DNA of 63,760 nt, counting the filler. It is 9 parts of 9 records of this genome, joined end to end, with 100 filler letters (N's around TTAATTAATTAA, not from the genome) between each part and the next. Parts side by side here need not be neighbours in the genome. Positions count along the whole stretch, not along the records: positions 7,289 to 15,922 come from SRR20825010_3454; 8 more parts are not named here. One strand, given 5' to 3'. Positions 3,700 to 21,081 of this stretch are shown piece by piece (positions within the stretch are counted from its first letter, which is position 1; every line of letters starts with the position of its first letter). Made by a program: the position numbers and the translations under genes. The notes under the pieces are model-generated. The model made no database searches and was not told where the DNA came from. It saw only the letters and a list, made by a program, of their open reading frames with translations.

Positions 3700-3826
3700 A
3701 AAACCAAAACCCAACCGTTTGGTTGGGTTTGGCACTATATAGTTTGAGTTAGTTAGTTTAAAACCTTAAAGTCTTTCCATCAAATTTTTAGATCTGCCCG
3801 AGGGCTAAAAACGACTTTATTGGAGG
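3700..3826 (-). ncRNA. Candidate small structured RNA ending in an intrinsic terminator
   Basis: Nested stems AAAGTC/GACTTT and TTTTTA/TAAAAA around a GCC-CTCG-GGC hairpin, an AACTAACTAACTCAAA tract, then hairpin AAACCCAACC/GGTTGGGTTT with a T-run. Confidence 0.4.
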
Positions 3827-3877
3827 CGCAAGTAAATAAATTGATTTGTCCTGTGCAAATAATATGTGAAAATTATC

Positions 3878-5023
3878 TTAAAATGAGAGTTTCACCGCAT
3901 ATTTCTGGATTTTGTCCAGAATTACTTCATAATCGGCCGGATTTTCAACGAAATCCAATTCACTAATATCCAATACTAGATTATTTTGCTCAGGAAAACT
4001 TCGTATATAATCAAAGTACCCACGGTTTAGCTGTTCCAAATATTCCGGGGCTATATTCTGTTCGTAACCTCTTCCTCTTTGCTTTATATTGCGTAGTAAG
4101 CGTTCCGTGTTTTGGTACAGGTAAATATATATTTTCGGCTTTTTTATCTCTTTGTACATAAGGTTAAAAAGCTTTCTGTACAGTTTAAATTCTTCTTCCT
4201 GAAGGGTGACCTTGGCGAAAATTATGGATTTGTTAATGTCGTAATCGCTTACCATAAAGTTCTTGAACAGATCAAACTGGGAAGTATCGTCCATAAATTG
4301 CTGGTAGCGATCTGCCAGAAAGGACATTTCCAAGGGGAAGGCAAACCTACCTTGATCCTCATAAAACTTAGGTAGAAATGGGTTGTCCGCAAACCTTTCC
4401 AAGACCAATTTTGCATTAAAATCCTGGCCAATCTTATGGGCCAAGGTTGTTTTTCCCGCGCCAATATTTCCTTCAATGGCAATATATTCCAATTGGGAAA
4501 ATAACTGTGATCTGTTCGTATATAGCTTATGGGACGTTTTTGTAATAATACTTTTGTCCTTGCATTCCTGTAATAGGTTTCTGGTATCCTTATTTAGAAT
4601 TGGATGGTAGAACTGTGGAGCTATGTCTGCCAAGGGTCTAAGTACAAACCTTCTCAATTGCAAGTTGGGGTGGGGGATGGTCAGTAAATCGGTATTAATG
4701 ATTTCCTTATCAAAATATAGTATATCGATATCGACGGTCCTGGAGGAGTAGCCTGTTCCCTTATTCCTTTCCCTGCCCAACCTTGTTTCTATTTCCAGTA
4801 ATTTTTCCAAAAGAGCGGTTGGGGTAAGTGGGGTTTCTACCTTAATGCACGCATTGAAGAAATTGTCACCCTCAAAACCCCAAGCCGGCGTTTCGTATAC
4901 TGGGGATGTTTTTATGACTTCGCCCACATTGGCTTGAATTAAGAATACCACCTCCTGCAAATGGTTGAGTTTGTCCCCAAGATTGCTTCCAAGTGAAAGA
5001 TATGTTGTTGTGGTCTTGTTCAT
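3878..5023 (-). CDS. folK: HPPK (FolK) fused to a deoxynucleoside kinase domain
   Basis: N-terminal YLSLGSNLGD, RTVDIDIL and IPHP (HPPK); C-terminal IAIEGNIGAGKTT P-loop and NPFLPKFY (dNK). Confidence 0.95.
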   Translation of the reverse strand: MNKTTTTYLSLGSNLGDKLNHLQEVVFLIQANVGEVIKTSPVYETPAWGFEGDNFFNACIKVETPLTPTALLEKLLEIETRLGRERNKGTGYSSRTVDIDILYFDKEIINTDLLTIPHPNLQLRRFVLRPLADIAPQFYHPILNKDTRNLLQECKDKSIITKTSHKLYTNRSQLFSQLEYIAIEGNIGAGKTTLAHKIGQDFNAKLVLERFADNPFLPKFYEDQGRFAFPLEMSFLADRYQQFMDDTSQFDLFKNFMVSDYDINKSIIFAKVTLQEEEFKLYRKLFNLMYKEIKKPKIYIYLYQNTERLLRNIKQRGRGYEQNIAPEYLEQLNRGYFDYIRSFPEQNNLVLDISELDFVENPADYEVILDKIQKYAVKLSF

Positions 5024-5152
5024 AATAGGCGGGCAAAGTAAACAAAAGTAATTAACTTCATAAAGGGAAATACCAAAAACAGGACCAATTTTTAGTGGTC
5101 TTTCCTAAATTGTGTATAAGGAGGTTGCAGGCTAAAAATTCAACATTTATAA

Positions 5153-5181
5153 TTGCAACAATCCTACATTGGTTATCTTTG
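5153..5181 (+). promoter_or_regulatory. Bacteroidota promoter for sppA
   Basis: TATCTTTG (5174-5181) matches TAnnTTTG; TTG lies 18 nt upstream. Confidence 0.65.
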
Positions 5182-5207
5182 CAAGTTATTAGCAATACAT
5201 ACGAGGA

Positions 5208-6968
5208 ATGAACTTTTTAAGAAATTTATTAGCTGCAATTATAGGATGTCTCATAGCTTTTGGAATCATGTTTGTCATGTTTCTTGTTTTAGCTGCCCTC
5301 ATCGGTCAAGGCGAGGATACCGTAGTGGTCAAGGATAATTCCGTTTTGGAAATTCAATTGCAGACCCCTATCAATGATTATGTGGGGATGGATGAATCCA
5401 ATCCCTTTGCAGGACTCTTCAATGTAAATCAGGGATTGGACGAGATATTGCATGCCATTCGTGTTGCTAAGGAGGACAATAAAATAAGAGGGATTAGCCT
5501 AAATAATAATGTGCTTATGGCCGGTTTGTCCCAAACTCAGGCTATTCGGGATGCCTTGGCCGATTTTGGTGAGAGCGGAAAGTTTATATATGCCTATGGG
5601 GACTTTTATACGCAAAAGGACTATTATTTGGCCAGTGCGGCCAATGAGGTATTCCTTAATCCAGTTGGCGCCATGGATTTTAAAGGATTGTCTACGGAAG
5701 TTTTATTTTTTAAGGATCTTCAGGAAAAGTCCGGTATTAAAATGGAAGTGATTCGGCATGGGAAGTATAAGAGTGCTGTAGAACCATTTTTGGCCAATGA
5801 AATGAGTGAGGCCAATAGGACCCAGATCAAGGAGTTGTTGGATGCCTTATGGCAATCCATGCTTACCAATATTTCGGAAAGTAGGGATATTTCTGTTAAA
5901 GATTTGAACCAGATTGCGGATACTTTGGGTACACGTACCTCAAAATATGCGGCGTTATCCGGGTTGATCGATGAGATAGTGTATTTCGATGAATACGAAA
6001 GCATGATCAAGGAAAAAATAGGGATAGATACGGCAGAGGATATCAACTATGTCCCAATATCCGATTATATACGAACTGCTGGCAAAATAAAAATCAATAG
6101 TGGTAATGATAAGATTGCTGTGATCTTTGCGCAAGGAGAAATCTGGTACGGGGAGGGAGGCTCCGATGTAATTGGTCAAGGAATTATTAATGACGCCCTA
6201 AAAAAAGCCAGGGAAGATAAGAATGTAAAGGCAATAGTGTTGAGGGTAAATTCCCCGGGAGGCAGTGCATTGGCCTCCGATATTATTTGGCGCGAGATCG
6301 AAATTACCAAGCAATCCAAACCAGTGGTGGTCTCCATGGGCGATGTTGCTGCTTCGGGAGGTTACTACATTGCGGCGGGAGCCGATAAGATCTTCGCCGA
6401 ACCTACTACGATTACCGGGTCTATTGGCGTTTTTGGAACTATTCCGAATATAAGTGAACTGGCCGAAAATATAGGGGTCAACGCCGAACAGGTGGGGACC
6501 AACAAAAACTCGGTAGACTATTCCTTATTTGAACCTATGAACGATAGTTTTAGAAGCAACGTTTTGGAAGGCATAGAAGCTACCTATGAAACATTTTTGG
6601 ATAGGGTGGCCCAAGGCCGTGGAATTACCATGGCACAGGCCGATAGTGTTGCCCAAGGTAGGGTATGGAGCGGGGTAGATGCCAAGCGCTTGGGATTGGT
6701 AGATGAATTGGGGGGACTGGATGAGGCTATTGAAGCGGCTGCTAAAATGGTAGGTTTGGACAACTATGGAATAAGAAAACTTCCCAAGTACAAATCGGAT
6801 TTTGAGAAGTTAATGGAAGATTTAGGAGGTGCTACAACCAAAAGCAAGGAAAGCATTATTCAACAAGAAATCGGGACTGAGGCCTATGCCATCCTAAAGG
6901 AAATAAAGCAGGCAATGCAAAATAAAGGCATTCAGGCCAGAATGCCGTTTACCTTGAATATCAAATAG
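5208..6968 (+). CDS. sppA: Signal peptide peptidase SppA (protease IV, 67K type)
   Basis: N-terminal TM anchor; GKYKSAVEPF, RVNSPGGS, AASGGYY, TGSIGV and QGRVWSG motifs. Confidence 0.96.
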   Translation: MNFLRNLLAAIIGCLIAFGIMFVMFLVLAALIGQGEDTVVVKDNSVLEIQLQTPINDYVGMDESNPFAGLFNVNQGLDEILHAIRVAKEDNKIRGISLNNNVLMAGLSQTQAIRDALADFGESGKFIYAYGDFYTQKDYYLASAANEVFLNPVGAMDFKGLSTEVLFFKDLQEKSGIKMEVIRHGKYKSAVEPFLANEMSEANRTQIKELLDALWQSMLTNISESRDISVKDLNQIADTLGTRTSKYAALSGLIDEIVYFDEYESMIKEKIGIDTAEDINYVPISDYIRTAGKIKINSGNDKIAVIFAQGEIWYGEGGSDVIGQGIINDALKKAREDKNVKAIVLRVNSPGGSALASDIIWREIEITKQSKPVVVSMGDVAASGGYYIAAGADKIFAEPTTITGSIGVFGTIPNISELAENIGVNAEQVGTNKNSVDYSLFEPMNDSFRSNVLEGIEATYETFLDRVAQGRGITMAQADSVAQGRVWSGVDAKRLGLVDELGGLDEAIEAAAKMVGLDNYGIRKLPKYKSDFEKLMEDLGGATTKSKESIIQQEIGTEAYAILKEIKQAMQNKGIQARMPFTLNIK

Positions 6969-7001
6969 AAAATTTTGATCCAAATAGGATTCAATTAAAA
7001 T

Positions 7002-7032
7002 GACCGTGCAAATACATCTGGACGGTCTTTTT
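7002..7032 (+). terminator. Probable intrinsic terminator after sppA
   Basis: GACCGT...ACGGTC stem followed by TTTTT. Confidence 0.55.
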
Positions 7033-7188
7033 GATTTTAAATAAGTACTTGGATCTTAGGTTTTAAGCATAAATAACTATACTTTTTCCCAATAGTTTGG
7101 GATGTTGCAATTAGCAGGCTAACTCTTTGCTGCAATCGTCATCCTAACCATTATCTTAAATTTTATTAGTGAAACTCAATTTTGAGAA

Positions 7189-7288: not shown

Positions 7289-10058
7289 TGTTTTGATATT
7301 AAGCTATATCGGATTTAAGAAACTAGAGGTTATAGTGGGAAGCTCGGAGGAACTTTCCCTTGTATTAGAGGAAGATGTGACTGATCTTGGAGCGGTGACG
7401 GTCAATGCAGGATATTATTCTGTAAAGGAGCGAGAGCGCACTGGAAGTATTTCAAGCATCTCTGCTGCTGATATTGAAGAGCAACCCGTTACCAATGTTC
7501 TTGCTACTATGCAAGGACGAATGCCGGGAGTGTATATCACACAAGACTCGGGGGTACCTGGTAGTGGTTTTCAAATTCAGATAAGGGGGCAAAATAGCTT
7601 GCGATCGGATGGGAATATGCCTTTGTATATTGTGGATGGTGTTCCTTTTACAACCCAGTCTATGGAGAGTTTCTATACCGGAGAGGCAGTACCTGGAATT
7701 ATTAACCCTTTAAATAATATCGACCCTACGTCCATAGCAAGTATCGAGGTGTTAAAAGATGCCGATGCTACGGCTATTTATGGCTCACGTGGAGCGAATG
7801 GGGTGGTATTAATTACAACAAAAAAAGGAGTTGCTGGTAAAACCCGGTTTCAGATAGGATACACCTATGGATTGGGAAGGGTTGCTAATTTCATGGACCT
7901 TATGGATACCAATACCTATCTGGAGATGAGACGGGAAGCTTATGCCAATGATGGTATAATAACATATCCTGCCAATGCTTACGATGTAAATGGAACATGG
8001 GATCAAAACCGTTATACGGACTGGCAAGAAGTATTAATAGGGGGAACCTCTGATATTATAGATGCGACAGGTTCCGTGTCAGGGGGGAGTGAGCACACTC
8101 AATTTTTAGTGAATGGGAATTACCATAAGGAAACCACTGTATATCCAGGAGATTATGCGTATAATAAGTTTGGACTTAATAGTAGTATCAATCACAGTAC
8201 CCGTGATGAAAAGTTTAAGGTACATTTAACTGCTGGTTATACAATTCAAAATAACAACTTACCGGGGTTGTCATTTATGACAGATATCTACCAATTAGCT
8301 CCTAATGCTCCGGCATTGTATCAGGAGGATGGGACTCTGAATTGGGAAAATAGTAGTTGGGAGAATCCATATAGTGTATTTGAAACCTCTTATGAATCAA
8401 AAACGAATAGCCTTATATCAAATCTGTTACTTTCTTATGAACCTATTGATGGGTTGGAGTTTAAAACCAGTTTGGGTTATACTAATAATCAGTTTTTTGA
8501 TCAAATGCTTCGTCCATCTACTGTATATGATCCAGCATATGAAATTACCAGTGAGTTTTCGAATGCCTACAAAAATCAGGTACATTTTAATTCTTGGATT
8601 GTCGAACCACAAGTATCTTATAAAAAAGAATTTTCGGCATTTAAAACGCAGTTATTAGTTGGAGGGACATTTCAAAAACAAGTTTCTTCACAATTAGTGC
8701 ATAGTACTAGTGGGTATGCCAGTAACAGCCTATTAGGAAATATGACTGCTGCTTCGTTTATTAATATTGCCACGGATGATCAGACTGAATATAAATACAA
8801 TGCCATATTTGGACGATTGAATACTTCCCTTTTTAATCGTTATTTTATAAACATAACAGGGAGACGGGATGGATCTTCTCGTTTTGGTCCTGGTCGCCAA
8901 TTTGCCAATTTTGGTGCAATAGGTATTGCATGGTTGTTTTCAGAGGAATCCTGGTTAGAAAACTTAAATTTTTTAAGTTATGGAAAATTAAGAGCGAGCT
9001 ATGGGACAACAGGAAATGATCAGATAGGTGATTATCAGTATTTGGATACGTATACCATTAGCGGAAATAGTTACAATGGAATAGCCGTTATGGAACCCTC
9101 AAGGCTTTTTAATCCTTCTTTTAGCTGGGAAGAAAACAAAAAGTTAGAGGTAGCCATGGAAACAGGATTTATAAAAGATCGACTCTTTTTAACGGTTGCT
9201 TATTTTAAGAACCGTTCTTCGAATCAGTTGGTAGGAATACCACTTCCGGGAACAACAGGTTTTTCTTCTATTCAGGCTAATTTAAATGCTACTATAGAAA
9301 ATAAAGGATGGGAGTTTACATTACGTTCCGAACAATTTAAAAACGAAGATTTTTCATGGAGTACTACATTTAATCTAAGTGTTAACCGTAACCGACTGGT
9401 CTCTTTTCCAGGATTAGAAACCTCCACCTATAGCAATAGCTATGTTATAGGAGAACCTTTAAATATCAGTAAGGTATATCAGTATGAGGGCTTGGACTCT
9501 CAAACGGGACTGTATCAATTTAAAGATTTTAACGACGATGATTTATTAACACGTGAAAATGATCGGGAAGCTATCATACGATTTGATCCTGACTTTTTTG
9601 GTGGAATCCAAAATAGTATTCGTTATAAAGGATTATCCGTAGACTTTCTTTTTCAATTTGTTAAACAAGATCGTTATACCGGTGAACATTCAATGGGAAT
9701 GGCTGGAAGAATGGGGAATCAATTAAACCTATTACAGGATCGTTGGAAGCAACCAGGAGACATCGCAACCTTTCAGCCCTATTCTTCAGGGGCTAATTCT
9801 GAACTTAGATCAAGGTATTTGAATTATTCCCAAAGTAACGCTGTATTGGATGATGCCTCCTTTATTAGACTTAAGAACATAGCTATTTCTTATCAATTAC
9901 CGAGGAATATCTTGCATGGGGTTACTTGCAGTATTATTTTAAAGGGACAAAATCTATTGACTTTTACAGATTATGAGGGATTAGATCCAGAAGCTAATTT
10001 CACAAATAGTTTACCACCATTGCAAGTACTCACCACAGGGATACAACTCCATTTTTAA
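7289..10058 (+). CDS. SusC/RagA-family TonB-dependent transporter, 5'-truncated
   Basis: LSYIGF, the SusC signature IEVLKDADATAIYGSRGANGVVLITTKKG, RRDGSSRFG, DASFIRLKNI and a C-terminal Phe. Confidence 0.96.
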
Positions 10059-10070
10059 ATTAATAAAATC

Positions 10071-11483
10071 ATGAAAAAATATATAACAACAGTTTTAAAA
10101 AATAAAAAAACAAATGGGCATCTTTGGTTTCGAAGCCTGCTAATATTTGTATGCTGCAGTACATTTTTGCTGTCTTGTTCAGATTTTGTGGAGGTAGAAC
10201 TTCCTTCATCGCAACTCAATGCTGATGATATCTTTACCGATATTTCTTCTGCTAATGCAGCCATGGCTTCCATATATGCTGAAATGCGTGATGGTAGTAT
10301 GGTAAGTGATTTAAGTTATCAGATAGGGAATTATGCAGATGAATTGGATTATTACGGTAGTATGGCTTCTGACACCGAGGATTTTAATAAAAATACGGTA
10401 ATTTCTTCCAATGGTACCATCAAAAGCTGGTGGAATACTGCCTATAATTTAATTTATAGTGCAAACTCAATTCTAGAACGTGTTGAGAATTCAAAACAAC
10501 TTTCTACAAGTGATTGCAATCAGTTAAAAGGGGAAGCTTTATTTGTAAGAGCATACCTTCATTTTTACTTGGCGCAACTTTATGGAGCAGTCCCTTATGT
10601 AACGACCACTAATTATTCAGAGAATGCTAAGGTGGTTAAAATTCCTGTTGATCAGTTGTATTTAAATGTACTGGAGGATTTAAAAGTAGCTGAAGGCTTA
10701 TTAGGTTTGGAATATGTAAATCCAAATCGTACCCGTCCAAATAGAGGCGTAGTTAAAGCACTTATGGCAAGAATATATTTATATACAGATCAATGGGAGG
10801 CTGCTGCTCAGGCAGCTTCGTATTGCATAAACAATACAGGTACATATACATGGAACACAAATTTAAATACCTTGTTTTTAAAAGATAATACTACAACTAT
10901 TTGGCAATGGTCTCCTGAATTTGAAGGACAAAACACCAATGAAGGGCAAGCTTTTATATTCTTTTCAGTACCTCCGGGAAACGTAGCCTTGAATCCTGAG
11001 CTTGTAGCAAGTTTTGAAACTAATGATTTGAGATTGGATGGTTGGATTAAGGGATTATCGGATGGGGAAACTACTTGGTATTATGCATATAAATATAAAG
11101 AGCAAGGTGGGACGGATGTCTCAAGAGAGTATAGTGTCATTTTTCGATTGGCTGAACAATATTTGATAAGGAGCGAAGCACGTGTACAAAACGGCGACAT
11201 AGAGGGAGGGGTGTCTGACCTAAATAAAATAAGAAATCGCGCAGGACTTTCCGAAGTTGGTGTTACTGATAAAGCTACCTTATTGAAACTTATCTTAGAG
11301 GAACGTAGGCATGAATACTTTACAGAATTAGGACATCGCTTTTTTGATTTAAAGCGTACAGAACAGCTGGATACTGTTTTAGGAGTTAAACCAGGTTGGA
11401 ATACAACAGACAGAATATTACCATTACCAGAGGATGAACTCTTGATAAATCCAAATTTAGAACCGCAAAATAAAGGATATTGA
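10071..11483 (+). CDS. SusD/RagB-family surface lipoprotein
   Basis: Lipobox LLSC; GEALFVRAYLHF, FRLAEQYLIRSEA, ERRHEYFTELGHRFFDLKR and the QNKGY end. Confidence 0.95.
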   Translation: MKKYITTVLKNKKTNGHLWFRSLLIFVCCSTFLLSCSDFVEVELPSSQLNADDIFTDISSANAAMASIYAEMRDGSMVSDLSYQIGNYADELDYYGSMASDTEDFNKNTVISSNGTIKSWWNTAYNLIYSANSILERVENSKQLSTSDCNQLKGEALFVRAYLHFYLAQLYGAVPYVTTTNYSENAKVVKIPVDQLYLNVLEDLKVAEGLLGLEYVNPNRTRPNRGVVKALMARIYLYTDQWEAAAQAASYCINNTGTYTWNTNLNTLFLKDNTTTIWQWSPEFEGQNTNEGQAFIFFSVPPGNVALNPELVASFETNDLRLDGWIKGLSDGETTWYYAYKYKEQGGTDVSREYSVIFRLAEQYLIRSEARVQNGDIEGGVSDLNKIRNRAGLSEVGVTDKATLLKLILEERRHEYFTELGHRFFDLKRTEQLDTVLGVKPGWNTTDRILPLPEDELLINPNLEPQNKGY

Positions 11484-14086
11484 TGAGAGGACTAAATATA
11501 AAATCGATCAATTTCTTTCATCATAATTGCAACCTTTTATGGGGTTTAGTATGGATAGGACTTCTTTGTGTTATGCCTTTATGTGCACAAAGTAATCGTA
11601 AAACCATGACCCCAGAAGATTATGATAAATGGTATCGTTTTAACTCTTTAGGGTTTGCTTCAGAGGGGAAATGGGTATTATTTAAAAAGTCTTATACAGA
11701 TCAACCAGATTCATTATTTGTAAAAGAAATAATAGGAGATAGGCTTTACGCAATTGAAGATTGCGGTCAGTTAGCTTATGTTGGAAATAAGATAGTTATT
11801 GGACATTGTGCGAATGGGAGGTATCAAATACTACATCTGGCATCGGGAAGAATGGAAAAAATGAATGCAGATAAAGTAGAAGTAAGTTTAAATGAGGATT
11901 ACCTTATGATGTATCATAAACAAAAGAAGGAACTGATTATTAGAAATCTTTCAAATGGTAAAAACGCATTTTTTTTTAATGTTTATGACTATTCCCATAA
12001 TCCAAAATCCAATGCCATTGCAATTATGAGCCGTGAATCTACAGAGAATCAACTAACCTTGGTATTTTTAAACAAAACGCTTAAAGAGGTTGTCTTATTG
12101 GAGAATTCTTCTCGCAAAGTTGTCGAACTCACATGGAATGCAGCGGGAGATGGTGTGGCCTTTTCGATGACTTCTAGTGAATCAGAAGGAGAATATGAAG
12201 ATGTAGGGGAGCTATGCTTCTATAAGATAACTAAGGAAAAGATGATGCGTATAGATTTGAATAATTGGGGTGGTTTTCCAAGTGATAAGAAGTTGGTAAG
12301 CACATGGGTTTTGCCGCTAAGGATTACCCCAGATGACAATAGGATATTATTTGCTTTTAAACGCAAACAACCTGTCGAAATGAAGGAGCTTCCAGAGGTC
12401 TGGAAAGCCGGTGATCCATATATCTATAAAGGAATGACTTATAGGATGCATTGGCAAAATACAGCCAAGTTAGGGATATGGGATGTAAAAACCAATCGTT
12501 TTATTAAGGTTACTGATACACTTTATCCTCAGTCGCTTATTAATAAAGATGCATCTTTAGCCTTGCTGTACAATCCGGCAACTTATCAACCTCAATCCAT
12601 GTCGAAGCCACCTATTGACCTCTATATAGCAGATTTGAAAAAGGAGAGGAAAACATTGTTTTTAAAACGTCAGCTGCATGAAACATCAAAAGTTTCCTTT
12701 AGCCCCTCTGGACGTTATATTCAATACTTCAGAGAAAAGGGGTGGTGGCTTTACGATTCTAAAACAGATGTTCATGTTAATTTATGTAAGAAATTTGAAA
12801 ATACTCAATTAATTGATTATGATGAATTAACTCCGTTATTATGGAGCAAAGATGAAGATACTTTATTTATGCAGGGAAGTTACGATTTATGGGAAGTTCC
12901 TATTGGAAATGGAGAGGTGAAGTCTTTAACGAATGGGAGGAAAAAGGGAGTTCATTATCATGTACTTACCAAGCCTACTGTTTACCAAAAACGACCTCAA
13001 TCATTATATTTTAATCGACAAACTCAATCGTTGATATTCTCTGTAAAAAAAGGGGATAGTATGGGTTATGCGATATTAAGACCGCAAAAAAAACTACAAG
13101 ATATAAGTCTTAGTGAAAATTATGTTCGTGATCCATTTCTATCTGAAGATGAACGATACTTTAGTTTTAGAATGGAGCGTAACGACCAGCCCTCTAAATT
13201 AATGATTTATGACCTGAGTTCAGATCGTTTACAAACATTGTTTCAGAGCAATCCTCATTATAAGAATTATAAACAAGGGCGCTCCAAAAAGGTTTTTTAT
13301 CGCAATAAAGATGGTCTCTTACTCTCAGGGATTCTTCGTTTTCCGACGGACTATAAGAAGGATTCACTATATCCCATGATTGTACGTGTTTATGAAAAAC
13401 AGGGATATAAGCGTTTTCAATATGTAAATCCTACCATGTACAATGGCTCAGGATTTAATAGTAAAAATTATGTTAACAATGGTTATTTTGTATTTCTACC
13501 AGATATTTCTTATACCATAGGGGAACCTGGCTTTTCAGCAGCAGATTGTATTATATCAGGTACCAAAGCTGCATTGAAGGAAGCTTCTATTGATCCTGAT
13601 AGAATTGGGTTGATAGGACACTCATATGGAGGGTTTGAAACGTTGTTTACCATAACTCAAACTGATTTTTTTGCTACTGCTATTGCCAGTGCTGGTGTAA
13701 CCGATATGGTACGGGGGTATTTAGGTCTTCAGGATCGGATTCTACTTAGTTATGATATGTATGAACATTTTCAACACCGCATGGGAGTTTCTTTATTTGA
13801 GGATTACCAAGGATATTTGGATAACTCTCCTATATATCATGCCACCAAAATTCATACACCTTTTTTATTGTGGTCGGGTAAAGAGGATTATCATGTGAAT
13901 TACCATCAGAGTATATCCTTTCATTTGGCCATGAAAAGGCTAGGAAAACCAAACAGTTTACTTTTATACCCTCAAGAAGGGCACGTCCTAGGGCGTCCTG
14001 AAAGTCAAAAAGATATTACTATAAAAACCGAGCAATGGTTTGCATATTATTTGAAAGAAGGGATAAAATACGATTGGATGCCGTAA
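11483..14086 (+). CDS. Secreted S9-family serine peptidase with a large beta-propeller region
   Basis: Nucleophile motif GHSYGG, then KEDYHV (Asp) and EGHV (His); signal-peptide-like N-terminus; ATG overlaps the SusD stop (TGATG). Confidence 0.92.
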   Translation: MRGLNIKSINFFHHNCNLLWGLVWIGLLCVMPLCAQSNRKTMTPEDYDKWYRFNSLGFASEGKWVLFKKSYTDQPDSLFVKEIIGDRLYAIEDCGQLAYVGNKIVIGHCANGRYQILHLASGRMEKMNADKVEVSLNEDYLMMYHKQKKELIIRNLSNGKNAFFFNVYDYSHNPKSNAIAIMSRESTENQLTLVFLNKTLKEVVLLENSSRKVVELTWNAAGDGVAFSMTSSESEGEYEDVGELCFYKITKEKMMRIDLNNWGGFPSDKKLVSTWVLPLRITPDDNRILFAFKRKQPVEMKELPEVWKAGDPYIYKGMTYRMHWQNTAKLGIWDVKTNRFIKVTDTLYPQSLINKDASLALLYNPATYQPQSMSKPPIDLYIADLKKERKTLFLKRQLHETSKVSFSPSGRYIQYFREKGWWLYDSKTDVHVNLCKKFENTQLIDYDELTPLLWSKDEDTLFMQGSYDLWEVPIGNGEVKSLTNGRKKGVHYHVLTKPTVYQKRPQSLYFNRQTQSLIFSVKKGDSMGYAILRPQKKLQDISLSENYVRDPFLSEDERYFSFRMERNDQPSKLMIYDLSSDRLQTLFQSNPHYKNYKQGRSKKVFYRNKDGLLLSGILRFPTDYKKDSLYPMIVRVYEKQGYKRFQYVNPTMYNGSGFNSKNYVNNGYFVFLPDISYTIGEPGFSAADCIISGTKAALKEASIDPDRIGLIGHSYGGFETLFTITQTDFFATAIASAGVTDMVRGYLGLQDRILLSYDMYEHFQHRMGVSLFEDYQGYLDNSPIYHATKIHTPFLLWSGKEDYHVNYHQSISFHLAMKRLGKPNSLLLYPQEGHVLGRPESQKDITIKTEQWFAYYLKEGIKYDWMP

Positions 14087-14101
14087 GTGATGAATTAAAG
14101 T

Positions 14102-14142
14102 AAATAGGGTGGCTCATTTTAGAGCCACCCTATTTTTTTTTA
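14102..14142. terminator. Intrinsic terminator between the convergent units
   Basis: Perfect 14-bp stem AAATAGGGTGGCTC/GAGCCACCCTATTT with a long T-run on the + strand. Confidence 0.9.
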
Positions 14143-14146
14143 GAAT

Positions 14147-14431
14147 CTATGGTTGTTCAGGTCTATAAAGTTGAACAGTACATTGATTCCCCTCTTCTAA
14201 AAATAGCGGGGTACCATCTTCTTCATAATTGACTGTACAAATATAATCTGTTTCTACAGTTGAACAATCATCTGCTTGTTGGCATGATGTTCCTGCGGGA
14301 TTTAATTTAATATGCCCCTGAACAATTGCTGCGTCTTTAGCCTTTAAACTCATTGCATGTGTTGAAAAGGCTCCGATGGTTGCTATGGCAAAAATAAAAG
14401 CCGGCAACCATTTTCTTGAAATTGTTTTCAT
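14147..14431 (-). CDS. Small secreted 4-Cys peptide (resembles DUF6520 family)
   Basis: 94 aa; Sec signal ending in THA; Cys50/56/65/84; A-rich Bacteroidota-type initiation region. The family name is from recollection, not a search. Confidence 0.8.
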   Translation of the reverse strand: MKTISRKWLPAFIFAIATIGAFSTHAMSLKAKDAAIVQGHIKLNPAGTSCQQADDCSTVETDYICTVNYEEDGTPLFLEEGNQCTVQLYRPEQP

Positions 14432-14452
14432 ATTTTTTGTATTTAAAGTTAT

Positions 14453-14491
14453 GATCTACTCTTTTTTACAGGTTTTCGATCTTACCCCTGT
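14453..14491 (-). promoter_or_regulatory. Candidate H-type pseudoknot in the leader of the peptide gene
   Basis: ACAGG-GGUAA-GAUC-GAAAA-CCUGU-AAAAAAGAGUA-GAUC: stem 1 ACAGG/CCUGU; the loop GAUC can pair with the downstream GAUC. Confidence 0.4.
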
Positions 14492-15922
14492 CATCGCGAT
14501 ATATTTGTATGTGTATCTCCATGAAGCATATTTTTAAGGTCATATTGGACTAATTTATTCCCGATAAAACCATAAAAAATAGATTCCTTTATGAAAAAAT
14601 GTCTTAGGGGTTTCCCTTGTTCTTTATAGATGTAAAAACTGGTTTGATAATTTCCATTTAAGATGTTATATACATCTATTGTTTGAGTTTGCTTCCATGT
14701 CTTTTCTGCCTCATATCTTCCTTTGATTTGAGAACGTATATATAAAAAGCCATTATAAGTATAGCTTGCAGGATTAACCATCATGGAGGCAATCAATTTT
14801 AGTTGTTGAGGATTCGATGTGGAGTCTATAATTAAGTTGGGCTTAGAAATGGTGTCAATTGTATGAGCTGTTATAATGTTGTTAAGTTTCTCACTCATTA
14901 CCAAAAATTTATTTTTATAGAAATAAGTATAGGATACGTGATTGGTAAGACCATCGTATGTAATACTACCATCGGCATTAAATATTTCGTCAGACTCATT
15001 ATTCAAAAGATGCGGTACAATTTGATAGGGTAGTGAATCCTTTATATAGAGGTAGCCAAGGTCACTTTTCTGGGATTGAGAATTCAAGGTTTTAAATAGT
15101 AATGTGTTATCATTAGTTAGTTGGTAATTTGAAAAGTTGATATTACCTTGGTATTGCGAGTCTACTTCCCAATTCGTTGTAGTTCCTTTTAATATCATAG
15201 AAATTTGACCATCTATTAAAAAGAAATAAGGAGGCTGGACTCTGACTTGAGCTGCAATGGATGGTAAATTATTATTACTGATTTGAATCTTAATGGTTTT
15301 CACAGTAGCTGTTTGTAGGTTTATTCGTTTTACAATGAGTGGACTACTATAATTTCCCAGATAAATATGTTGCTTACTTGAACCAGCAAAATAAAAAGCA
15401 TCTCCGTTTAAATTTATATTAGCAATCTTTGGAATATTATATGAGTATCGACGAATAAAAGGATTTTCTTCGTATATAATTCGCTCTGAGGTTAGAAATA
15501 ACACGGTGACCGTACCAACACTTAGAAGTGAGATTACGGAAGCTATTACATAAAAAGCATACTTGTTCTTACTTTTAGAATCTCTTTTTTTGTGAAAATG
15601 AATGGCTAAAAAAGCAAATAAGGTAAATACTATATTAAAAATAAGGTGCGCCTTCCATCCCATTTTTTCCAGCACACCACCACAGGAACAGGGGATATTA
15701 GAAGCGTGGTTTAAAATGATATAAATATAGGTGCTAAACATGACCATTAAGGCTAATGATGCCAACAGACCTATATAACGTGTGTTTTTATATAGAAGTA
15801 GAAGAGCCGTTAAAATTTCAGATATAGGAACAATCCACACTAGCCAACCGGCATAGGCACTCAGCATCGGTGCTTGCCCAATTTGAATACGGAAATTTTC
15901 AAAATCCAACAGTTTAGTGAGT
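14491..15922 (-). CDS. MauE/DoxX-family membrane redox protein fused to a ~330-aa soluble domain, 5'-truncated
   Basis: Frame is open to the contig edge (TKLLDFENF); several TM segments; IPCSCGGVLEKMGWKAHLIFN motif typical of MauE/DoxX. Confidence 0.88.
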
Positions 15923-16022: not shown

Positions 16023-16622
16023 CCGATCCCCGAAGTGATCCGGGGCATCAACGCCTTCACAATTGCCCTGCGGTCGGTCAATCCGGAAGCCGAGGTCAAG
16101 GTTGTCTGGGTGAATTCCTGGTATGATCCGGGCAAGGAAGGCGATGCCGCCAAGGCGCTGATCGATCAGGGCGCGGACATCATCCTGCAGCACACCGACT
16201 CCCCGTCTCCGCTCCAGGTCGCCGAATCCCGTGGCGTTTACGGCTTCGGCCAGGCCTCGGACATGGTCAAGTTCGCGCCGAAAGCCCAGCTTTCCGCCAT
16301 CATCGACAATTGGGACGGCTATTACGTCGAACGGGCCAAAGCCGTGATGGACGGCACCTGGGAATCCCAGGACACCTGGGGCGGCCTGAAATCCGGCATG
16401 GTAGAGATGGCACCGTTCAACGATGTTATCCCCGCCGATGTGCAGAAGCTTGCCAACGACGCGATCGCGGGTCTCAAGGACGGCTCCATCCACGCATTTG
16501 ATGGACCGATCAAGGATCAGAGCGGCGCCGTGAAGGTCAAGAAAGGCGAAATGCTCGACGATGGCGCTTTGCTCGGCATGAACTGGTATGTCGAAGGTGT
16601 TCAGGGCAAGATCCCGAACTAA
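16023..16622 (+). CDS. BMP-family ABC transporter substrate-binding protein, 5'-truncated
   Basis: RGINAF, WVNSWYDPGKE, GADIILQHTDS and MNWYVEGV. Confidence 0.9.
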   Translation, partial: PIPEVIRGINAFTIALRSVNPEAEVKVVWVNSWYDPGKEGDAAKALIDQGADIILQHTDSPSPLQVAESRGVYGFGQASDMVKFAPKAQLSAIIDNWDGYYVERAKAVMDGTWESQDTWGGLKSGMVEMAPFNDVIPADVQKLANDAIAGLKDGSIHAFDGPIKDQSGAVKVKKGEMLDDGALLGMNWYVEGVQGKIPN

Positions 16623-16641
16623 CGCGACCAACGAAACACCG

Positions 16642-16677
16642 AAACGGCCCCGCCCGTACCCGGCGCGGGGCCGTTTT
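16642..16677 (+). terminator. Intrinsic terminator
   Basis: AAACGGCCCCGC/GCGGGGCCGTTT stem with a T-rich tail. Confidence 0.8.
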
Positions 16678-16696
16678 CATTTTGAAAGGCTTTTCC

Positions 16697-17425
16697 ATGA
16701 CTCCAGAAGAAATTCGGGACCGGGTAGTGCATCGGGACGGGCTGATTCTGGTTATCGACAAGCCTGCGGGGTTGCCTGTCCATGACGGACCCGGCGGCGG
16801 GGATAATCTCGAAGCCTATTTCAAGCACCTGACATACGGCATTCAGCATACCCCGGCACTCGGGCACCGGCTGGACCGAGACACCAGCGGCTGTCTCGTC
16901 CTGGGACGCAATCCGAAAGGATTGAAGAAGCTTGGGAAACTGTTCCGGGAAGGCCTTGTCGAGAAAACCTATTGGGCCATCACCAAAGGCGTCCCGAAGG
17001 AACCGGAAGGCCGCATCGAGCTCCCCTTGAGAAAAGTCACCAGCAAAGACAAGGGCTGGCGGATGGTGGTGGACAGGAAAGACGGGCAGGAAAGCATCAC
17101 CGATTATCGCGTCGTGAGCTCTGCGAATGGCCTGTGCTTCATCGAATGCTTCCCGCGCACCGGCCGGACGCACCAGATCCGCGTCCACCTGGCCTCCATC
17201 GGCTGCCCGATCATAGGAGACCCGCTCTATGGCGCGGAGGAAGGTGGAGAAGACGGAGAACCTCTGCAACTCCACTCCCGCGCCCTGCGTCTGCCGATGC
17301 AACAGAGCAAACCGCCCGTCTATGCGGAAGCACCGCCGCCAGAATATATGCGCTTGTATCTGGAACGCCTCGGTATAGATCCCGCCTCTGTCGTTCGAAG
17401 CACGTCGACGAACGCAGAAGGTTGA
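16697..17425 (+). CDS. RluA-family pseudouridine synthase
   Basis: IDKPAGL, HRLDRDTSG, GRTHQIRVH, IIGDPLYG and LHS motifs. Confidence 0.94.
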   Translation: MTPEEIRDRVVHRDGLILVIDKPAGLPVHDGPGGGDNLEAYFKHLTYGIQHTPALGHRLDRDTSGCLVLGRNPKGLKKLGKLFREGLVEKTYWAITKGVPKEPEGRIELPLRKVTSKDKGWRMVVDRKDGQESITDYRVVSSANGLCFIECFPRTGRTHQIRVHLASIGCPIIGDPLYGAEEGGEDGEPLQLHSRALRLPMQQSKPPVYAEAPPPEYMRLYLERLGIDPASVVRSTSTNAEG

Positions 17426-17546
17426 TACCGATAGCAACCCTCTTTAGCTGAACCTCCTCCTGCTGCTTCTCACAATCGCCAGGGTGACAATCAAGGCCAT
17501 GGCAGATAGAGTGACCGCACTAGGCTCATAGCCAAAGGAAAGCTTC

Positions 17547-17852
17547 ATGGATATCAACAGCACCACCGCCTCCCAGAATATTGCGCGTACGCAGGCCAAG
17601 CCGGTTCAGCGCAACGAAGGCCAGCAGGCAGCAGGTCAAACGCAGGGTGCAGCCGGGGCCGTATCTGTATCCGTGACCGGTGAGAGCCGGCAGGCGTCCG
17701 AGCTTGGCGAAAGCGTGAACGACAACCTCTCTGGCGAGGAGGCGCTCGCACTTGCCGGAAGTATTGCCGAGCAACTTGCCAACCTGCCGGGCGACACGGG
17801 TATCGTCAGTAACCCTGCCCTGCTTGAAGAAGCCGCACGCGGCGCCAGCTAA
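17547..17852 (+). CDS. Hypothetical Ala/Gln/Ser-rich protein
   Basis: 101-aa ORF with an AAGGA RBS and coding-like composition. Confidence 0.65.
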   Translation: MDINSTTASQNIARTQAKPVQRNEGQQAAGQTQGAAGAVSVSVTGESRQASELGESVNDNLSGEEALALAGSIAEQLANLPGDTGIVSNPALLEEAARGAS

Positions 17853-17936
17853 GAGCCTGGCACGCCGCTTGACGAAGTTGATCTCTGGGCTTCGTCATTC
17901 GACAGGATGATGTTTCAGGAACTTGATAGAATTAAA

Positions 17937-17958
17937 AAGGGCGCCATATGGCGCCCTT
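17937..17958. terminator. Bidirectional terminator
   Basis: Perfect 22-bp palindrome AAGGGCGCCATATGGCGCCCTT flanked by A- and T-rich tracts between convergent genes. Confidence 0.8.
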
Positions 17959-17982
17959 CTGTTTTGCGGTTTGACCTCAACA

Positions 17983-18402
17983 TCAGGCTTCTTGATTTTC
18001 CAGCTCTTTTCTGGCGGCGTCGGCGATCATTCGCTCTCTGACCTCCTCCATAATCTCTTCCCTCAGCGCAGCCTTTTCCTTCGGAGGAAGGGCATCATAC
18101 TGCTCCTGGGTCAGACCTTTATCCTTCAGAATGGCGTCAAAATACCGTTCTTCAGGAGTCTTGTGCAGATAGTCGAGTAATGCCGTTACAACGGCTGACT
18201 GCCCGGTATCCGCATTCGCGGTACCGGCCGCAGCCGCGCCTGCCGTTGACGCGCTTTCTTCTTCTATTTCTGAACTGTAGACACCGTTGAAAGCCTTGGT
18301 GAACCCGCTCATGCTTGAAATGCCGAGCTTTTGCGGCGCCTTGCTCTTCAGCTGAGCGCTATCACTTTCTGCATAGCTTCCCGTATAGATGATTGCTTCC
18401 AT
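17983..18402 (-). CDS. Hypothetical protein with an acidic helical C-terminus
   Basis: AAGGAG RBS before ATG 18402; C-terminal DYLHKTPEER...GLTQEQYDALPP helical segment. Confidence 0.75.
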   Translation of the reverse strand: MEAIIYTGSYAESDSAQLKSKAPQKLGISSMSGFTKAFNGVYSSEIEEESASTAGAAAAGTANADTGQSAVVTALLDYLHKTPEERYFDAILKDKGLTQEQYDALPPKEKAALREEIMEEVRERMIADAARKELENQEA

Positions 18403-18439
18403 TGCTTCGCTCCTTGGTTGGAAGACCGAAGATTTGGCA

Positions 18440-18455
18440 TGCAATAAGCGTACCC
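18440..18455 (-). promoter_or_regulatory. Putative sigma54 (-24/-12) promoter
   Basis: GGGTACGCTTATTGCA versus consensus TGGCACGNNNNTTGCW; exact GG-N10-GC spacing. Confidence 0.55.
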
Positions 18456-18465
18456 GGAGAGCCGA

Positions 18466-18975
18466 TTAAAAGTGCGGCCATAGCATGCGGGAAACGGCGA
18501 AGGTCGCCATCTCCACATAAAACAACATGAAGCCAAGCATGATGTAGCGATGCACATCACTGGTGAAGCGTGACTTCTGCGCCATTGCCATCCGGGTAAG
18601 CTCATCAAAATGGACGCGCATGAAAGTCTGTTTTTTCGCCTCTGAGCTTTGCCAGCTTTGCAGCATCAGAATTGTGCCGACGGTCGCCAGGCTGAAAACC
18701 CAGACCAGATAAAACAAGAATCGGACCAGACTGACATCACCCCAGCGGAGCCAGACACCAACAGCGACCACACCAACGCATAGCGCGGAGAAATATATCA
18801 GCGTGTGCCATTGCTGCGCCTTGGCAAACCTGATGTTCGCCGATGCGTCCGTATAGAGGGCAAGAAATTCCTGCCGTGTTTCTGAATCGATGTCCGGATG
18901 AGTGTCGTGATGGGCGGCCGGCCCGCGTGCGCGTTTCGGGTTCTGTGGGTCCGCTCTGGACAGTCCGTCAGCCAT
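18466..18975 (-). CDS. Hypothetical membrane protein (about 3 TM)
   Basis: 169 aa with three hydrophobic segments; GGAGG RBS. Confidence 0.75.
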   Translation of the reverse strand: MADGLSRADPQNPKRARGPAAHHDTHPDIDSETRQEFLALYTDASANIRFAKAQQWHTLIYFSALCVGVVAVGVWLRWGDVSLVRFLFYLVWVFSLATVGTILMLQSWQSSEAKKQTFMRVHFDELTRMAMAQKSRFTSDVHRYIMLGFMLFYVEMATFAVSRMLWPHF

Positions 18976-19025
18976 GGAAGATCCTCCAGCTTGCCTGCCT
19001 CACACGGATTATGCGCTTTGGTTTG

Positions 19026-19457
19026 TTATTGAATCAACTCTTTAGGGTCTAAAAACGGACAGGGTTTAAGGATTACTTGCATCTCCCCCTCCCGGACCAG
19101 CTCAGGCTCGCCACCGCGCTTGATCAGGTAGGTCCGGCGTGGTTCAGGCGCAGACCATGTCAGCACCTGATCGACTTCCAGACGGTCGCCGGAGATCCGA
19201 TAGCTGGATCTCCCCATCTCCAGAACGCGCACACCGGAGAGCGTGCCATGCCTGGGAAGAACACGCACATATACCCCCTGATGGAACACCATAACCGCCG
19301 TACCGCTGCATTTCGGCTGACCGTCCGGACCGGCGATGCCCCACACCCCTTCCACCTTCTGCTCTGCCCCGGAAGTTACGGCCGAAACGGCAGCACCTGA
19401 AAGGCAGAGCGCTAAAGCGAGTATGATCAGCAGCGCCGGTGACCGGCCGTGTTCCAT
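19026..19457 (-). CDS. Hypothetical secreted protein
   Basis: Signal-peptide-like N-terminus; starts 3 nt after the ECH stop. Confidence 0.7.
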   Translation of the reverse strand: MEHGRSPALLIILALALCLSGAAVSAVTSGAEQKVEGVWGIAGPDGQPKCSGTAVMVFHQGVYVRVLPRHGTLSGVRVLEMGRSSYRISGDRLEVDQVLTWSAPEPRRTYLIKRGGEPELVREGEMQVILKPCPFLDPKELIQ

Positions 19458-19460
19458 GGC

Positions 19461-20234
19461 TCAGGCAGCGCCTTTCTTGCTCGCCAGGAAAGCCTGCATC
19501 ATGGCTTGCGGCTCACCTGTTTCGTAAGCGGCGGCAAAAGCCTCTATCCCGGCTTCGATCCCCTCTTCCAGCGACTCTTCTTCCCAGACCTTGAGAAGCT
19601 GCTTCTGGATGCGGATCGCCGCCGGACCGGCCTTGGCGATTTCGGACGCCATCTCGTCGGCGATCTCGAACAGCGACTCGCTCGTCACCATACGCTCGAT
19701 GAAACCCCAGTCGCGGGCCGTCCGGACGTCAATAGTGGCACCCGTATAAATCAGGTACGACGCCTTGCCCCAGCCGATCAGACGCGGCAGCAGGGCCGCC
19801 TCGATTACCGACGGGATGCCGACCTTCACTTCCGGCATGCCGAACTTTGCATTCTCGCCAGCAATCCGCATATCGCAGGCGGCCGCGACTTCCATGCCCG
19901 CGCCCAGGCAATAGCCGTCAATGGCGGCTATCACCGGCACCCGGCATTCCCGGATTGCCTTCATCAGGCCGTGCAGGCGGGAGATGAACGCTTCCGCACT
20001 GTCCGCATCGCACGCCGCCATCTCGTTGATGTCGGCACCGCCGATGAAGGCCTTGTGCCCGGCACCGCGCAGGATTACCGCGCGAACGCTGTCATCCGCC
20101 TCCAGAGCGGTTATCGCCCCGGTCAGAGCTTCGATCCCCTCCGAGCCAACGATATTGATCTTGGCGCTATTCTCCCAAGTGATCGTGACGACAGTTCCCG
20201 TGCCACGTTCCTTGCGACCGATTTCAACCGGCAT
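19461..20234 (-). CDS. Enoyl-CoA hydratase/isomerase family protein
   Basis: AFIGGADI, IAAIDGYCLGAGMEVAAACD and FGMPEVKVG; start set at ATG 20234. Confidence 0.92.
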   Translation of the reverse strand: MPVEIGRKERGTGTVVTITWENSAKINIVGSEGIEALTGAITALEADDSVRAVILRGAGHKAFIGGADINEMAACDADSAEAFISRLHGLMKAIRECRVPVIAAIDGYCLGAGMEVAAACDMRIAGENAKFGMPEVKVGIPSVIEAALLPRLIGWGKASYLIYTGATIDVRTARDWGFIERMVTSESLFEIADEMASEIAKAGPAAIRIQKQLLKVWEEESLEEGIEAGIEAFAAAYETGEPQAMMQAFLASKKGAA

Positions 20235-21012: not shown

Positions 21013-21081
21013 GTGGGACCGGGATTGCTATGACGGATCAGGAATTTAGAACCCCGGAACCATGAGACAACGGACGCCCCG

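Follow-up and report, generated by a model that had tools for sequence, protein, structure and literature searches.

Organisation of the locus

The window, that is, the whole stretch of DNA that was analysed, was 63,760 bases long and consisted of nine contigs with N/ttaattaattaa spacers between them; the finding described here concerned a single contig, at 7289-15922. On this contig (8,634 bp, GC content 0.359), an operon encoding a predicted SusC-type transporter, a SusD-type lipoprotein, and an S9 serine peptidase converged with a second unit encoding a MauE-family fusion protein and a small exported protein containing cysteines (Table 1). Galbibacter orientalis DSM 19592 matched the contig at 99% identity. 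The original prediction, made from the letters alone, had described this convergent arrangement with a four-cysteine peptide of 94 amino acids (aa), and each of its observed elements was confirmed, down to the 12-nt gap between susC and susD and the TGATG in which the susD stop codon overlaps the ATG of the peptidase gene, both of which were read in the sequence. The hairpin that it had assigned to both units was also present, with a 14-bp stem holding 7 G-C pairs and a loop of 6 nt. The T-run TTTTTTTT follows 3' on the + strand and the tail on the - strand is T-poor; read on the + strand, the structure resembles a terminator, and on the - strand it does so less strongly.

Table 1. Features of the contig at 7289-15922 (positions count along the window)
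Feature	Position	Strand	Evidence and remarks
susC-type TonB-dependent transporter	7289..10058	+	5'-truncated by contig end; frame open from 7290, checked
susD-type surface lipoprotein, 470 aa	10071..11483	+	PF14322 1.2e-30; PF07980 7.8e-19
S9 (prolyl-oligopeptidase family) serine peptidase	11483..14086	+	PF00326 5.1e-28; N-terminal signal peptide
Hairpin	14102..14135	.	Within the 60-nt gap between the converging units
DUF6520 mini-protein, 94 aa	14147..14431	-	PF20130, marginal score
MauE fusion gene	14491-15922	-	PF07291; 5' end cut
MauE membrane domain of fusion	15493..15922	-	Residues 28-170 of 503; fifth transmembrane helix after
Cys-free beta-propeller domain of fusion (predicted)	14491..15492	-	Residues 171-503; AF2 and Foldseek

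Both contig ends were truncated, as had been noted: relative to the Galbibacter proteins, SusC (1,010 aa when complete) was short of 88 residues at its 5' end and the MauE fusion (503 residues when complete) was short of 27. Extension of the contig had been proposed as a way to find regulators and genes of conjugative elements, and the complete G. orientalis locus (L001) yielded the former only. A 218-aa protein with a LuxR-like C-terminus was encoded upstream of the MauE gene and an Xre-type helix-turn-helix (HTH) gene lay upstream of susC, while no transfer, mobilisation, or RteC genes were found within 10 kb of this copy. It was flanked by housekeeping genes (purD to one side; genes for an IcmF-like mutase and an epimerase to the other), and the contig's own copy is chromosomal. 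No tRNA, GC shift, or Rfam match was found in the 21-kb Galbibacter locus.

The domain scan found no glycoside hydrolase, lyase, or sulfatase family on the contig. Families of carbohydrate-active enzymes (CAZymes) were likewise absent among open reading frames (ORFs) of at least 70 aa in the 10 kb on either side of the G. orientalis locus, and none were seen among the scanned neighbours of the sampled loci described below. The locus is not a canonical polysaccharide utilisation locus, which agreed with the original prediction. Families for methylamine metabolism, including mauA and mauB, were absent among the neighbours in L001, L023, L024, and L002-L006.

Co-inheritance of the two operons

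The two converging operons are one conserved, near-obligately co-inherited Bacteroidota cassette. The layout occurred three times in the genome of G. orientalis (L001, L023, L024); the second S9-type copy (L024) adjoined conjugative-element genes (coupling protein, DUF5712, RadC, single-stranded DNA-binding protein, and DUF932), and the third (L023) encoded an M16 peptidase instead of S9 together with a stand-alone MauE of 137 aa. The full set of genes was found at 6/6 loci with a homologue of the MauE fusion, at 30-35% identity in Myroides and Flavobacterium. At one of the loci, L002 in Myroides sp. mNGS23_01, the genes for the MauE fusion, S9, and SusD were each broken into at least two ORFs, which could reflect decay or a sequencing error in that assembly.

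The association was examined from three starting points across an even sample of 401 Bacteroidota genomes. The forward test was a six-frame search with PF20130 (DUF6520), the family of the mini-protein, and gave matches over the cut-off in 16 genomes; it took in all 19 over-cut-off places outside G. orientalis and one place below the cut-off, leaving out two other sub-threshold places, and the search missed the contig's own peptide. The DUF6520 gene lay beside MauE and faced SusC/SusD in 18/19 places, the exception having an AcrB context and looking like a false match. For the reverse test, the contig's SusD served as query with a boundary at 281 bits: MauE adjoined 32/33 SusD places scoring at least 281 bits, compared with 1/20 of the examined places below it. 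In the exception above the boundary (L080), MauE was not detected and a small exported Cys peptide was present. When the domain fused to MauE was the starting point, 27/29 places lay within ~7 kb of cassette SusD matches; one of the remainder sat beside an S9 gene at a contig end and the other was an indeterminate fragment at a contig edge, so that 28/29 fused-domain places were in such cassettes overall. Full or sibling forms of the cassette were carried by ~27 of the 401 sampled genomes.

A scan of named genomes with a SusD alignment as query returned at least 582 relatives, and the best 80 of these were examined (43-52% identity). They came mostly from Flavobacterium, including F. johnsoniae CI04 (L155), with Aequorivita, Empedobacter, and Moheibacter also represented. 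Within this best-80 set, SusC, SusD, S9, peptide, MauE, and propeller were all present at 71/76 loci with enough flank. The other five (L103, L124, L163, L166, and L170) held SusCD-S9 lacking the peptide or an intact MauE, and L103 was decayed. The forward and propeller tests gave no clear case of a MauE/peptide unit lacking SusCD. Co-occurrence was thus frequent in every comparison (6/6, 18/19, 32/33, 28/29, 71/76), and the rare co-occurrence named in the original prediction as an outcome against it was not seen. Across 89 complete cassettes, Spearman correlations of pairwise identities were 0.73 between SusD and the MauE fusion and 0.78 between SusD and S9 of the same operon, indicating that the two operons diverge as one block.

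More than one divergent cassette could be housed together, and G001, G148, and G308 each carried three per genome. A separate observation was made in Flavobacterium sp. ZS1P14, in which locus L124 (5850-11280, + strand) had tandem S9 genes after SusCD and no peptide or MauE within reach; three complete cassettes were present elsewhere in that genome (L106, L158, L171).

The DUF6520 mini-protein

The secreted four-Cys peptide of the original prediction was present and belongs to an existing Pfam family. Its PF20130 score was marginal (25.9 bits against a cut-off of 25.4); the G. orientalis paralogues scored 74.4 and 37.2 bits, and an atlas comparison placed the contig peptide among DUF6520 clusters with scores of 0.92-0.93. 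One DUF6520 cluster of the atlas carries the automatic name "NVEALA family", which we note as a lead. In the peptide, a Sec-type signal peptide precedes a core of ~65 aa with four Cys, and the tail reads C-x3-L-Y-R-P. Among relatives, the signal-peptide-like N-terminus was conserved (MKT...LP...AGAFAT), the core followed the pattern C-x5-6-C-x7-8-C-x13-19-C, and the C-terminus read C-x3-L-[YF]-[RK]-P with 0-4 further variable residues. The mature peptide had exactly four Cys in 89/89 complete S9-type cassettes. Outside this framework it varied widely, as 86/89 mature peptides were distinct and the median pairwise identity of 0.26 was the lowest in the cassette, compared with 0.51-0.57 for SusD and SusC.

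The AF2 model predicted a small beta fold for the core (~residues 35-90), with a predicted local distance difference test score (pLDDT) of ~91. Foldseek found no relatives of this fold in the PDB (best E-value 1.7), and in a VIA-align comparison of the model with 48,161 chains every Z stayed below 2. A role of the peptide as a protease inhibitor was set aside, since the neighbouring peptidase changes catalytic class from cassette to cassette.

The MauE-propeller fusion

PF07291 matched the contig copy of the fusion with 87.4 bits (1.3e-24) and the full-length L001 protein with 110.1 bits (1.2e-31), over a cut-off of 27. The CXC active site, Cys105-Ser-Cys107 (15682-15690), was invariant in 25/25 fusions. 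By these features, including a CXC between helices 3 and 4, the contig protein is a predicted member of the MauE family. Two MauE proteins from other phyla are reported to replace DsbB in Escherichia coli, acting through a periplasm-facing CXC between helices 3 and 4 and possibly working normally through a thioredoxin-fold partner (10.64898/2026.03.05.709764, in its available part). That experiment supported the disulfide-forming role given to MauE in the original prediction, and by analogy the protein studied here is a putative DsbB-like, quinone-coupled, disulfide-forming enzyme.

The original prediction had named the fusion MauE/DoxX; the MauE half of that name stood, while DoxX was ruled out for the fused domain by a predicted beta-propeller fold. 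Helix 4 was followed by a strongly basic loop (HKKRDSKSKNK) and a fifth hydrophobic helix, which by the positive-inside rule would place the C-terminal 333 residues in the periplasm. This fused domain contained 0 Cys. Its AF2 model (alignment A3) was all-beta with ~28 strands, a pLDDT of 86.6, and a predicted template-modelling score (pTM) of 0.86. Almost all of its top 50 Foldseek matches in the PDB were beta-propellers, the best being 3s9j, a Bacteroides DUF4221 protein (TM-score 0.57), followed by BamB and WD40 proteins. No Pfam family was found for the propeller, as a search of 28 domains at E of 1 or less gave one weak DUF4221 match (E 0.0013). In L049, L066, and L075, the propeller had a gene of its own, adjacent to that of the peptide. 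The domain probably serves to dock the peptide and bring it to the CXC site.

In the atlas, the propeller scored 0.87-0.88 to TolB-like six-bladed propeller lipoproteins of Bacteroidota, which is again a lead. Together with the NVEALA name, it hints that small exported peptides and propeller proteins may be paired repeatedly, and more widely, in Bacteroidota.

A compost metatranscriptome contained a 625-nt RNA contig, 97% identical and with a depth of 223, that ran from the 3' end of the MauE fusion gene across the spacer into the peptide gene, covering its first 90 nt. Depths of the further contigs listed for this run along the stretch were 2.7-8.6. Transcription of the MauE/peptide unit is hinted at, though weakly, given that contig depth cannot rank genes and that DNA carry-over is possible; in the RNA runs considered (X1-X3), parts of the contig with no RNA contigs are not evidence of silence.

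SusC, SusD, and the S9 peptidase

The contig SusC scored 648.6 bits to TIGR04056 (cut-off 368.25; 2.3e-194), 61.5 bits to the TIGR04057 signature (cut-off 46.2), and 74.6 bits to the Plug domain PF07715, and it is on these matches a predicted SusC/RagA TonB-dependent transporter. The full-length protein of L001 had CarbopepD_reg_2 and Plug domains and no STN signalling domain. Its partner scored over both cut-offs for SusD (PF14322, 107.6 bits; PF07980, 68.9 bits), and the lipoprotein Cys36 was invariant in 31/31 cassette SusDs, pointing to a SusD/RagB lipoprotein. A complex prediction for SusD (37-470) with the peptide (27-94), run with neither alignments nor controls, scored 0.00, which speaks neither for nor against binding.

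The peptidase matched PF00326 with 98.5 bits (cut-off 22.6). Among 89 cassette homologues, the catalytic Ser (G-x-S-x-G) was kept in 89/89, the Asp in 87/89, and the His in 88/89. A hydrophobic N-terminal run was found in 78/89, followed in 50 of those by [AGSC]Q. The kept triad and the signal peptide suggested, as sequence features, that S9 is probably an active, exported enzyme. The closest solved chains, over the catalytic domain only, were 8wt1 (1.4e-16), an uncharacterised S9 peptidase, and then AtxE2 (5txc; 9.1e-15), a lasso isopeptidase. Identity as an AtxE2-type lasso isopeptidase was ruled out: the score to the AtxE2 equivalog NF033523 was 94.2 bits, over the C-terminal part only, against a cut-off of 400, and no lasso cyclase, protease, or precursor families were seen in the scanned loci.

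Variation among cassettes, regulators, and mobility

The gene after susD was S9 in 13/18 cassettes of the forward sample. Elsewhere it encoded an M16 peptidase (L023, L048), a DUF4953 Met-zincin (L049), or, in L066, an S8 subtilase accompanied by a thioredoxin-DUF3738 protein, and TlpA-like thioredoxin-fold proteins occupied this slot in L064 and L075-L082. In L060 and L067, no gene lay between susD and the peptide gene, and a thioredoxin-fold gene was found upstream of susC. The peptide varied in step, with four Cys alongside S9 (89/89 cassettes), two alongside M16 (L023, L048), and mostly two in the thioredoxin forms (L064, L078, L080, L081), L075 being a four-Cys exception. The enzyme after susD therefore tracks the class of peptide, and its replacement among four unrelated peptidase families suggested a generic job on the mini-protein.

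Sibling cassettes (L075, L076, L078, L080, L081, L082) consisted of a FecR gene, a SusC with an STN domain, SusD, and a thioredoxin-fold protein of 417-459 aa, with FecR and STN checked in L075, L076, and L078 alone. They faced a stand-alone MauE and a peptide of ~70-130 aa, with two Cys in L078, L080, and L081 and four in L075, and an AraC regulator was present in L075, L078, and L081. Surface signalling induced by a ligand is wired in this way, through an STN-domain SusC combined with FecR. A gene for a 77-aa exported protein with nine Cys in repeated K-x-C-D-P-K-type units lay in L081 (9128-9361, + strand), ~2 kb upstream of the sibling cassette. A gene for a LanB-like lanthipeptide dehydratase was found ~4 kb from the DUF6520/MauE/SusCD variant of L060 (G388:C31; 14116-16704, - strand), placing a further system for modifying peptides near that cassette.

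Regulators beside MauE included AraC proteins with or without PAS (usually with DUF7793), LuxR-type response regulators, LytTR, and AraC with tetratricopeptide repeats, and an Xre-type HTH gene was commonly found upstream of susC across cassettes. The cassette is a frequent cargo of Bacteroidota conjugative elements: RteC adjoined it in L002-L004, L006, L048, L049, L053, and L062, a coupling protein and/or relaxase was found in L005, L024, and L057, and an integrase in L050. A recurring trio was observed upstream of the MauE gene, made up of DUF7793 (~127 aa), an AraC-type protein (~305 aa, sometimes with PAS), and a divergent fusion of ~805 aa that joins an aminotransferase to a FemAB-like/GNAT region, with RteC usually next. 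The trio was recognised by Pfam in L048, L049, and L053 and by ORF size and order in L058, L059, and L070-L072; it may serve to control the cassette or may be part of the conjugative-element backbone.

The other contigs of the window

The nine contigs spanned 1-7188, 7289-15922, 16023-32253, 32354-36355, 36456-44093, 44194-48872, 48973-54460, 54561-59356, and 59457-63760, with GC ranging from 0.35 to 0.66. Three low-GC contigs were Bacteroidota-like and carried, respectively, MutS with an S49 peptidase, the cassette, and a TonB-dependent receptor with DUF4249 and a monomeric isocitrate dehydrogenase. The six high-GC contigs included a pyrroloquinoline quinone dehydrogenase, a PAS hybrid kinase, transporters of the major facilitator superfamily, and CitMHS. 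This spread in GC and gene content indicated that the assembly mixes at least two organisms.

Proposed function and alternatives

The mechanism that we favour, with a probability of about one half, is that the cell makes and oxidises the mini-protein, the cognate SusCD re-imports it, and the peptidase cleaves it. The 94-aa DUF6520 precursor would be exported by Sec, and its four Cys would be oxidised to two disulfides by the dedicated inner-membrane MauE while the periplasmic propeller held the substrate, replacing the usual thioredoxin-fold partner. The folded mini-protein would then be released from the cell by an assumed exit route, recaptured by the cognate SusD, and pulled in by SusC with TonB energy. 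In the periplasm, S9 would cleave it, either ending a signal or freeing a carried item; in the sibling cassettes, the thioredoxin-fold protein would open the mini-protein instead of a peptidase. Oxidation of the peptide by MauE, transport by SusCD and its direction, cleavage by S9, and the first exit are all predicted steps.

Co-inheritance and joint divergence of the operons, the tracking of peptide class by the enzyme gene, the invariant CXC, and the precedents compared below (ButCD/BfUbb for import, Fus and PqqL/YddB for periplasmic cleavage, and the lasso isopeptidase clusters) all count in favour of this mechanism, and two further patterns fit it. The existence of SusCD-S9-only units, with no clear units of MauE and peptide only, is better explained by receptor-only "listeners" than by exporters with no cargo. 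Several divergent cassettes per genome and 86/89 distinct peptides are also the expected look of private ligand-receptor pairs. From this, a more specific class could be proposed for Bacteroidota, in which a hypervariable disulfide mini-protein is folded by MauE-propeller, released, recognised only by its cognate SusCD, and destroyed by a periplasmic peptidase or reductase. We offer this version tentatively and regard it as somewhat doubtful; if true, no SusCD before it would have been reserved for a protein ligand that the cell encodes itself. Frequent travel on conjugative elements beside RteC and the stacking of divergent copies suggested that such a ligand may act for the element or its host as a signal of self-recognition or quorum, in Gram-negative bacteria the counterpart of the peptide pheromones that control conjugation in Firmicutes. 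Alternatively, the mini-protein may be a privatised carrier of a scarce nutrient.

Several points weigh against re-import. The cassette encodes no route for export across the outer membrane other than SusCD, and the peptide has no lipobox, is too small for the C-terminal domain of the type IX secretion system, and is accompanied by no ABC/C39 exporter. Release from the cell is thus assumed, and this is the weakest point of the mechanism. The peptide is also made in the compartment of the peptidase that would destroy it, which looks wasteful unless the fold is resistant or expression is timed apart. We infer the link between the peptide and SusC/SusD; no shared operator was detected between the upstream regions of susC and mauE in 86 cassettes, where the longest shared k-mer averaged 9.6 within cassettes and 9.35 between them. 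Net charge ran from -8 to +6 with a median of -1 across 89 cassettes, so that no common physico-chemical function is obvious. S9, S8, and M16 peptidases also serve as maturation proteases for secreted peptides, and the sibling thioredoxin-fold proteins could be MauD/DsbA-like oxidation partners and not reductases.

The missing exit route keeps three alternatives in play. The strongest of these, although we consider it unlikely, is a system for biosynthesis and export, in which the peptidase trims the mini-protein in the periplasm, SusCD is the exit, and the peptide acts outside with no re-import. The cassette moves between hosts on conjugative elements with SusCD as its sole component in the outer membrane, and a self-contained route would explain the exit. 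The C-terminal L-[YF]-[RK]-P with its 0-4 variable residues might be where a proline-specific S9 enzyme trims the peptide, and the thioredoxin-fold genes of the siblings could encode MauD-like oxidation partners. Secretion through a TonB-dependent transporter also has a precedent, as Oar is reported to be needed for the secretion of PopC in Myxococcus (PMC6434023, in the part available). However, SusD is a surface-exposed, ligand-capturing lid, the STN and FecR of the siblings are wiring for sensing an incoming ligand, and SusCD-S9 units with no peptide or intact MauE (5/76) would be pointless for a dedicated exporter. The SusCD/RagAB pairs characterised so far all import, within what is available of the reports on ButCD (PMC11467351) and RagAB (10.1101/755678).

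A mini-protein with a Sec signal and no visible exit could also simply stay inside, as a periplasmic partner, regulator, or adaptor of a SusCD-peptidase system that imports a foreign peptide or protein as nutrient. CAZyme-free SusCD loci with peptidases have been proposed as systems for protein or peptide uptake (PMC11467351 and PMC6793856, in their available text), and the co-inheritance counts would fit any tight functional partnership. Conservation would be expected of such an accessory, yet the peptide diverges fastest (0.26 against 0.51-0.57, with 86/89 distinct), it would need to partner four unrelated peptidase families as well as thioredoxin-fold proteins, and SusCD-S9 units lacking it exist. 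We find an accessory confined to the periplasm rather unlikely.

Antagonism, in which a bacteriocin-like toxin enters competitors through a related SusCD and the producer's peptidase confers immunity by destroying the toxin that re-enters, seems quite unlikely. It would account for a hypervariable, secreted Cys scaffold, for several cassettes per genome, and for conjugative carriage; the LytTR of L064 and the AraC and LuxR regulators elsewhere resemble bacteriocin-type control, and BfUbb is described as a small disulfide-bearing toxin that is imported by SusCD (PMC11467351, available part). Against this, a producer that carries the receptor alongside its toxin is inherently sensitive, the peptide is not consistently cationic (-8 to +6, median -1), and the cassette holds neither a separate immunity gene nor a dedicated exporter. 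The isopeptidase-type lasso peptides of analogous clusters are mostly free of antimicrobial activity, according to the available portion of PMC9266682. Lastly, the view that an ordinary peptide-uptake SusCD happens to lie beside an unrelated MauE/peptide pair, for which separate transcription toward a common terminator and the lack of a shared operator might be cited, is very improbable and effectively refuted by co-occurrence (18/19, 32/33, 28/29, 71/76) and by a pairing kept at 30% identity across genera and in three paralogous copies in one genome.

SusC/SusD pairs are the hallmark importers by which Bacteroidota take up nutrients, and an assignment to glycan systems is made almost by default. 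The cassette represents a large conserved class whose transporter has, as its only plausible partner, a tiny protein that is self-made and self-folded. If the link proposed in the re-import mechanism holds, the biology of SusCD would extend to self-produced protein ligands, with roles in signalling, kin recognition, or carrier-mediated scavenging; MauE would gain a concrete client and a new partner domain in the propeller, and a common cargo of Bacteroidota conjugative elements would be explained. Tractable hosts that carry the cassette are Flavobacterium johnsoniae (L155) and G. orientalis DSM 19592, with its three copies.

Comparison with known systems

The principle of pairing a ligand made by the cell itself with its own TonB-dependent transporter and hydrolase is known, while the present list of parts is not previously described. 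Searches of the literature that left supplements and subscription-only papers outside found no publication on DUF6520 and nothing on the topic that joined MauE and SusC.

The lasso isopeptidase clusters of Proteobacteria (astexins with AtxE1/AtxE2, sphingopyxin, benenodin) likewise combine a self-encoded stable peptide with an S9 hydrolase, a TonB-dependent transporter, and regulators. The isopeptidase is reported to act on the peptide of its own cluster only, with catch-and-release or turnover suggested as its role (PMC9266682, available part). In contrast to these clusters, the ligand here would be a Sec-exported disulfide protein of ~65 aa and not a lasso-type ribosomally synthesised and post-translationally modified peptide made with ATP; maturation would fall to a MauE oxidase, SusC/SusD forms the transporter, the host phylum is Bacteroidota, and genes for lasso cyclase and leader protease are absent.

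Coupling of a TonB-dependent transporter to a periplasmic protease is likewise seen in the Fus system of Pectobacterium (FusA/FusC) and in YddB/PqqL of E. coli, in which a protease of narrow specificity is reported to cleave an imported small folded protein (PMC6793856, available part; see also PMC6071955 and PMC6042079). The M16 variants of the cassette (L023, L048) copy this pairing of transporter and protease. The cargo of Fus is a host plant ferredoxin, whereas the candidate cargo of the cassette is self-encoded with its own folding enzyme, the contig's protease was classed as S9 and not M16, and SusD adds a lid to the transporter.

ButCD of Bacteroides fragilis is a CAZyme-free SusCD with an adjoining metallopeptidase gene, and it is reported to import the small disulfide-bearing protein BfUbb (PMC11467351, available part). 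BfUbb, however, is a toxin exploiting a conserved transporter whose genes lie elsewhere in the genome, with no dedicated oxidase and no co-inherited cassette of toxin and transporter. RagAB of Porphyromonas gingivalis is a SusCD-type pair that is reported to import oligopeptides and not glycans (10.1101/755678, available part). It takes peptides generated by proteases from the host as food, and its locus differs in having no self-encoded ligand, oxidase, or dedicated periplasmic peptidase.

For MauE, a requirement for the periplasmic CXC protein in forming the disulfides of a small Cys-rich protein is reported (10.64898/2026.03.05.709764, available part). The cassette differs from the methylamine (mau) system in that no mauA or mauB lies nearby and the client would be the DUF6520 peptide, and its MauE is fused to a Cys-free beta-propeller in place of the thioredoxin-fold partner. 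In its overall logic, a ligand with a private receptor and a dedicated hydrolase, the cassette as we read it would resemble siderophore systems.

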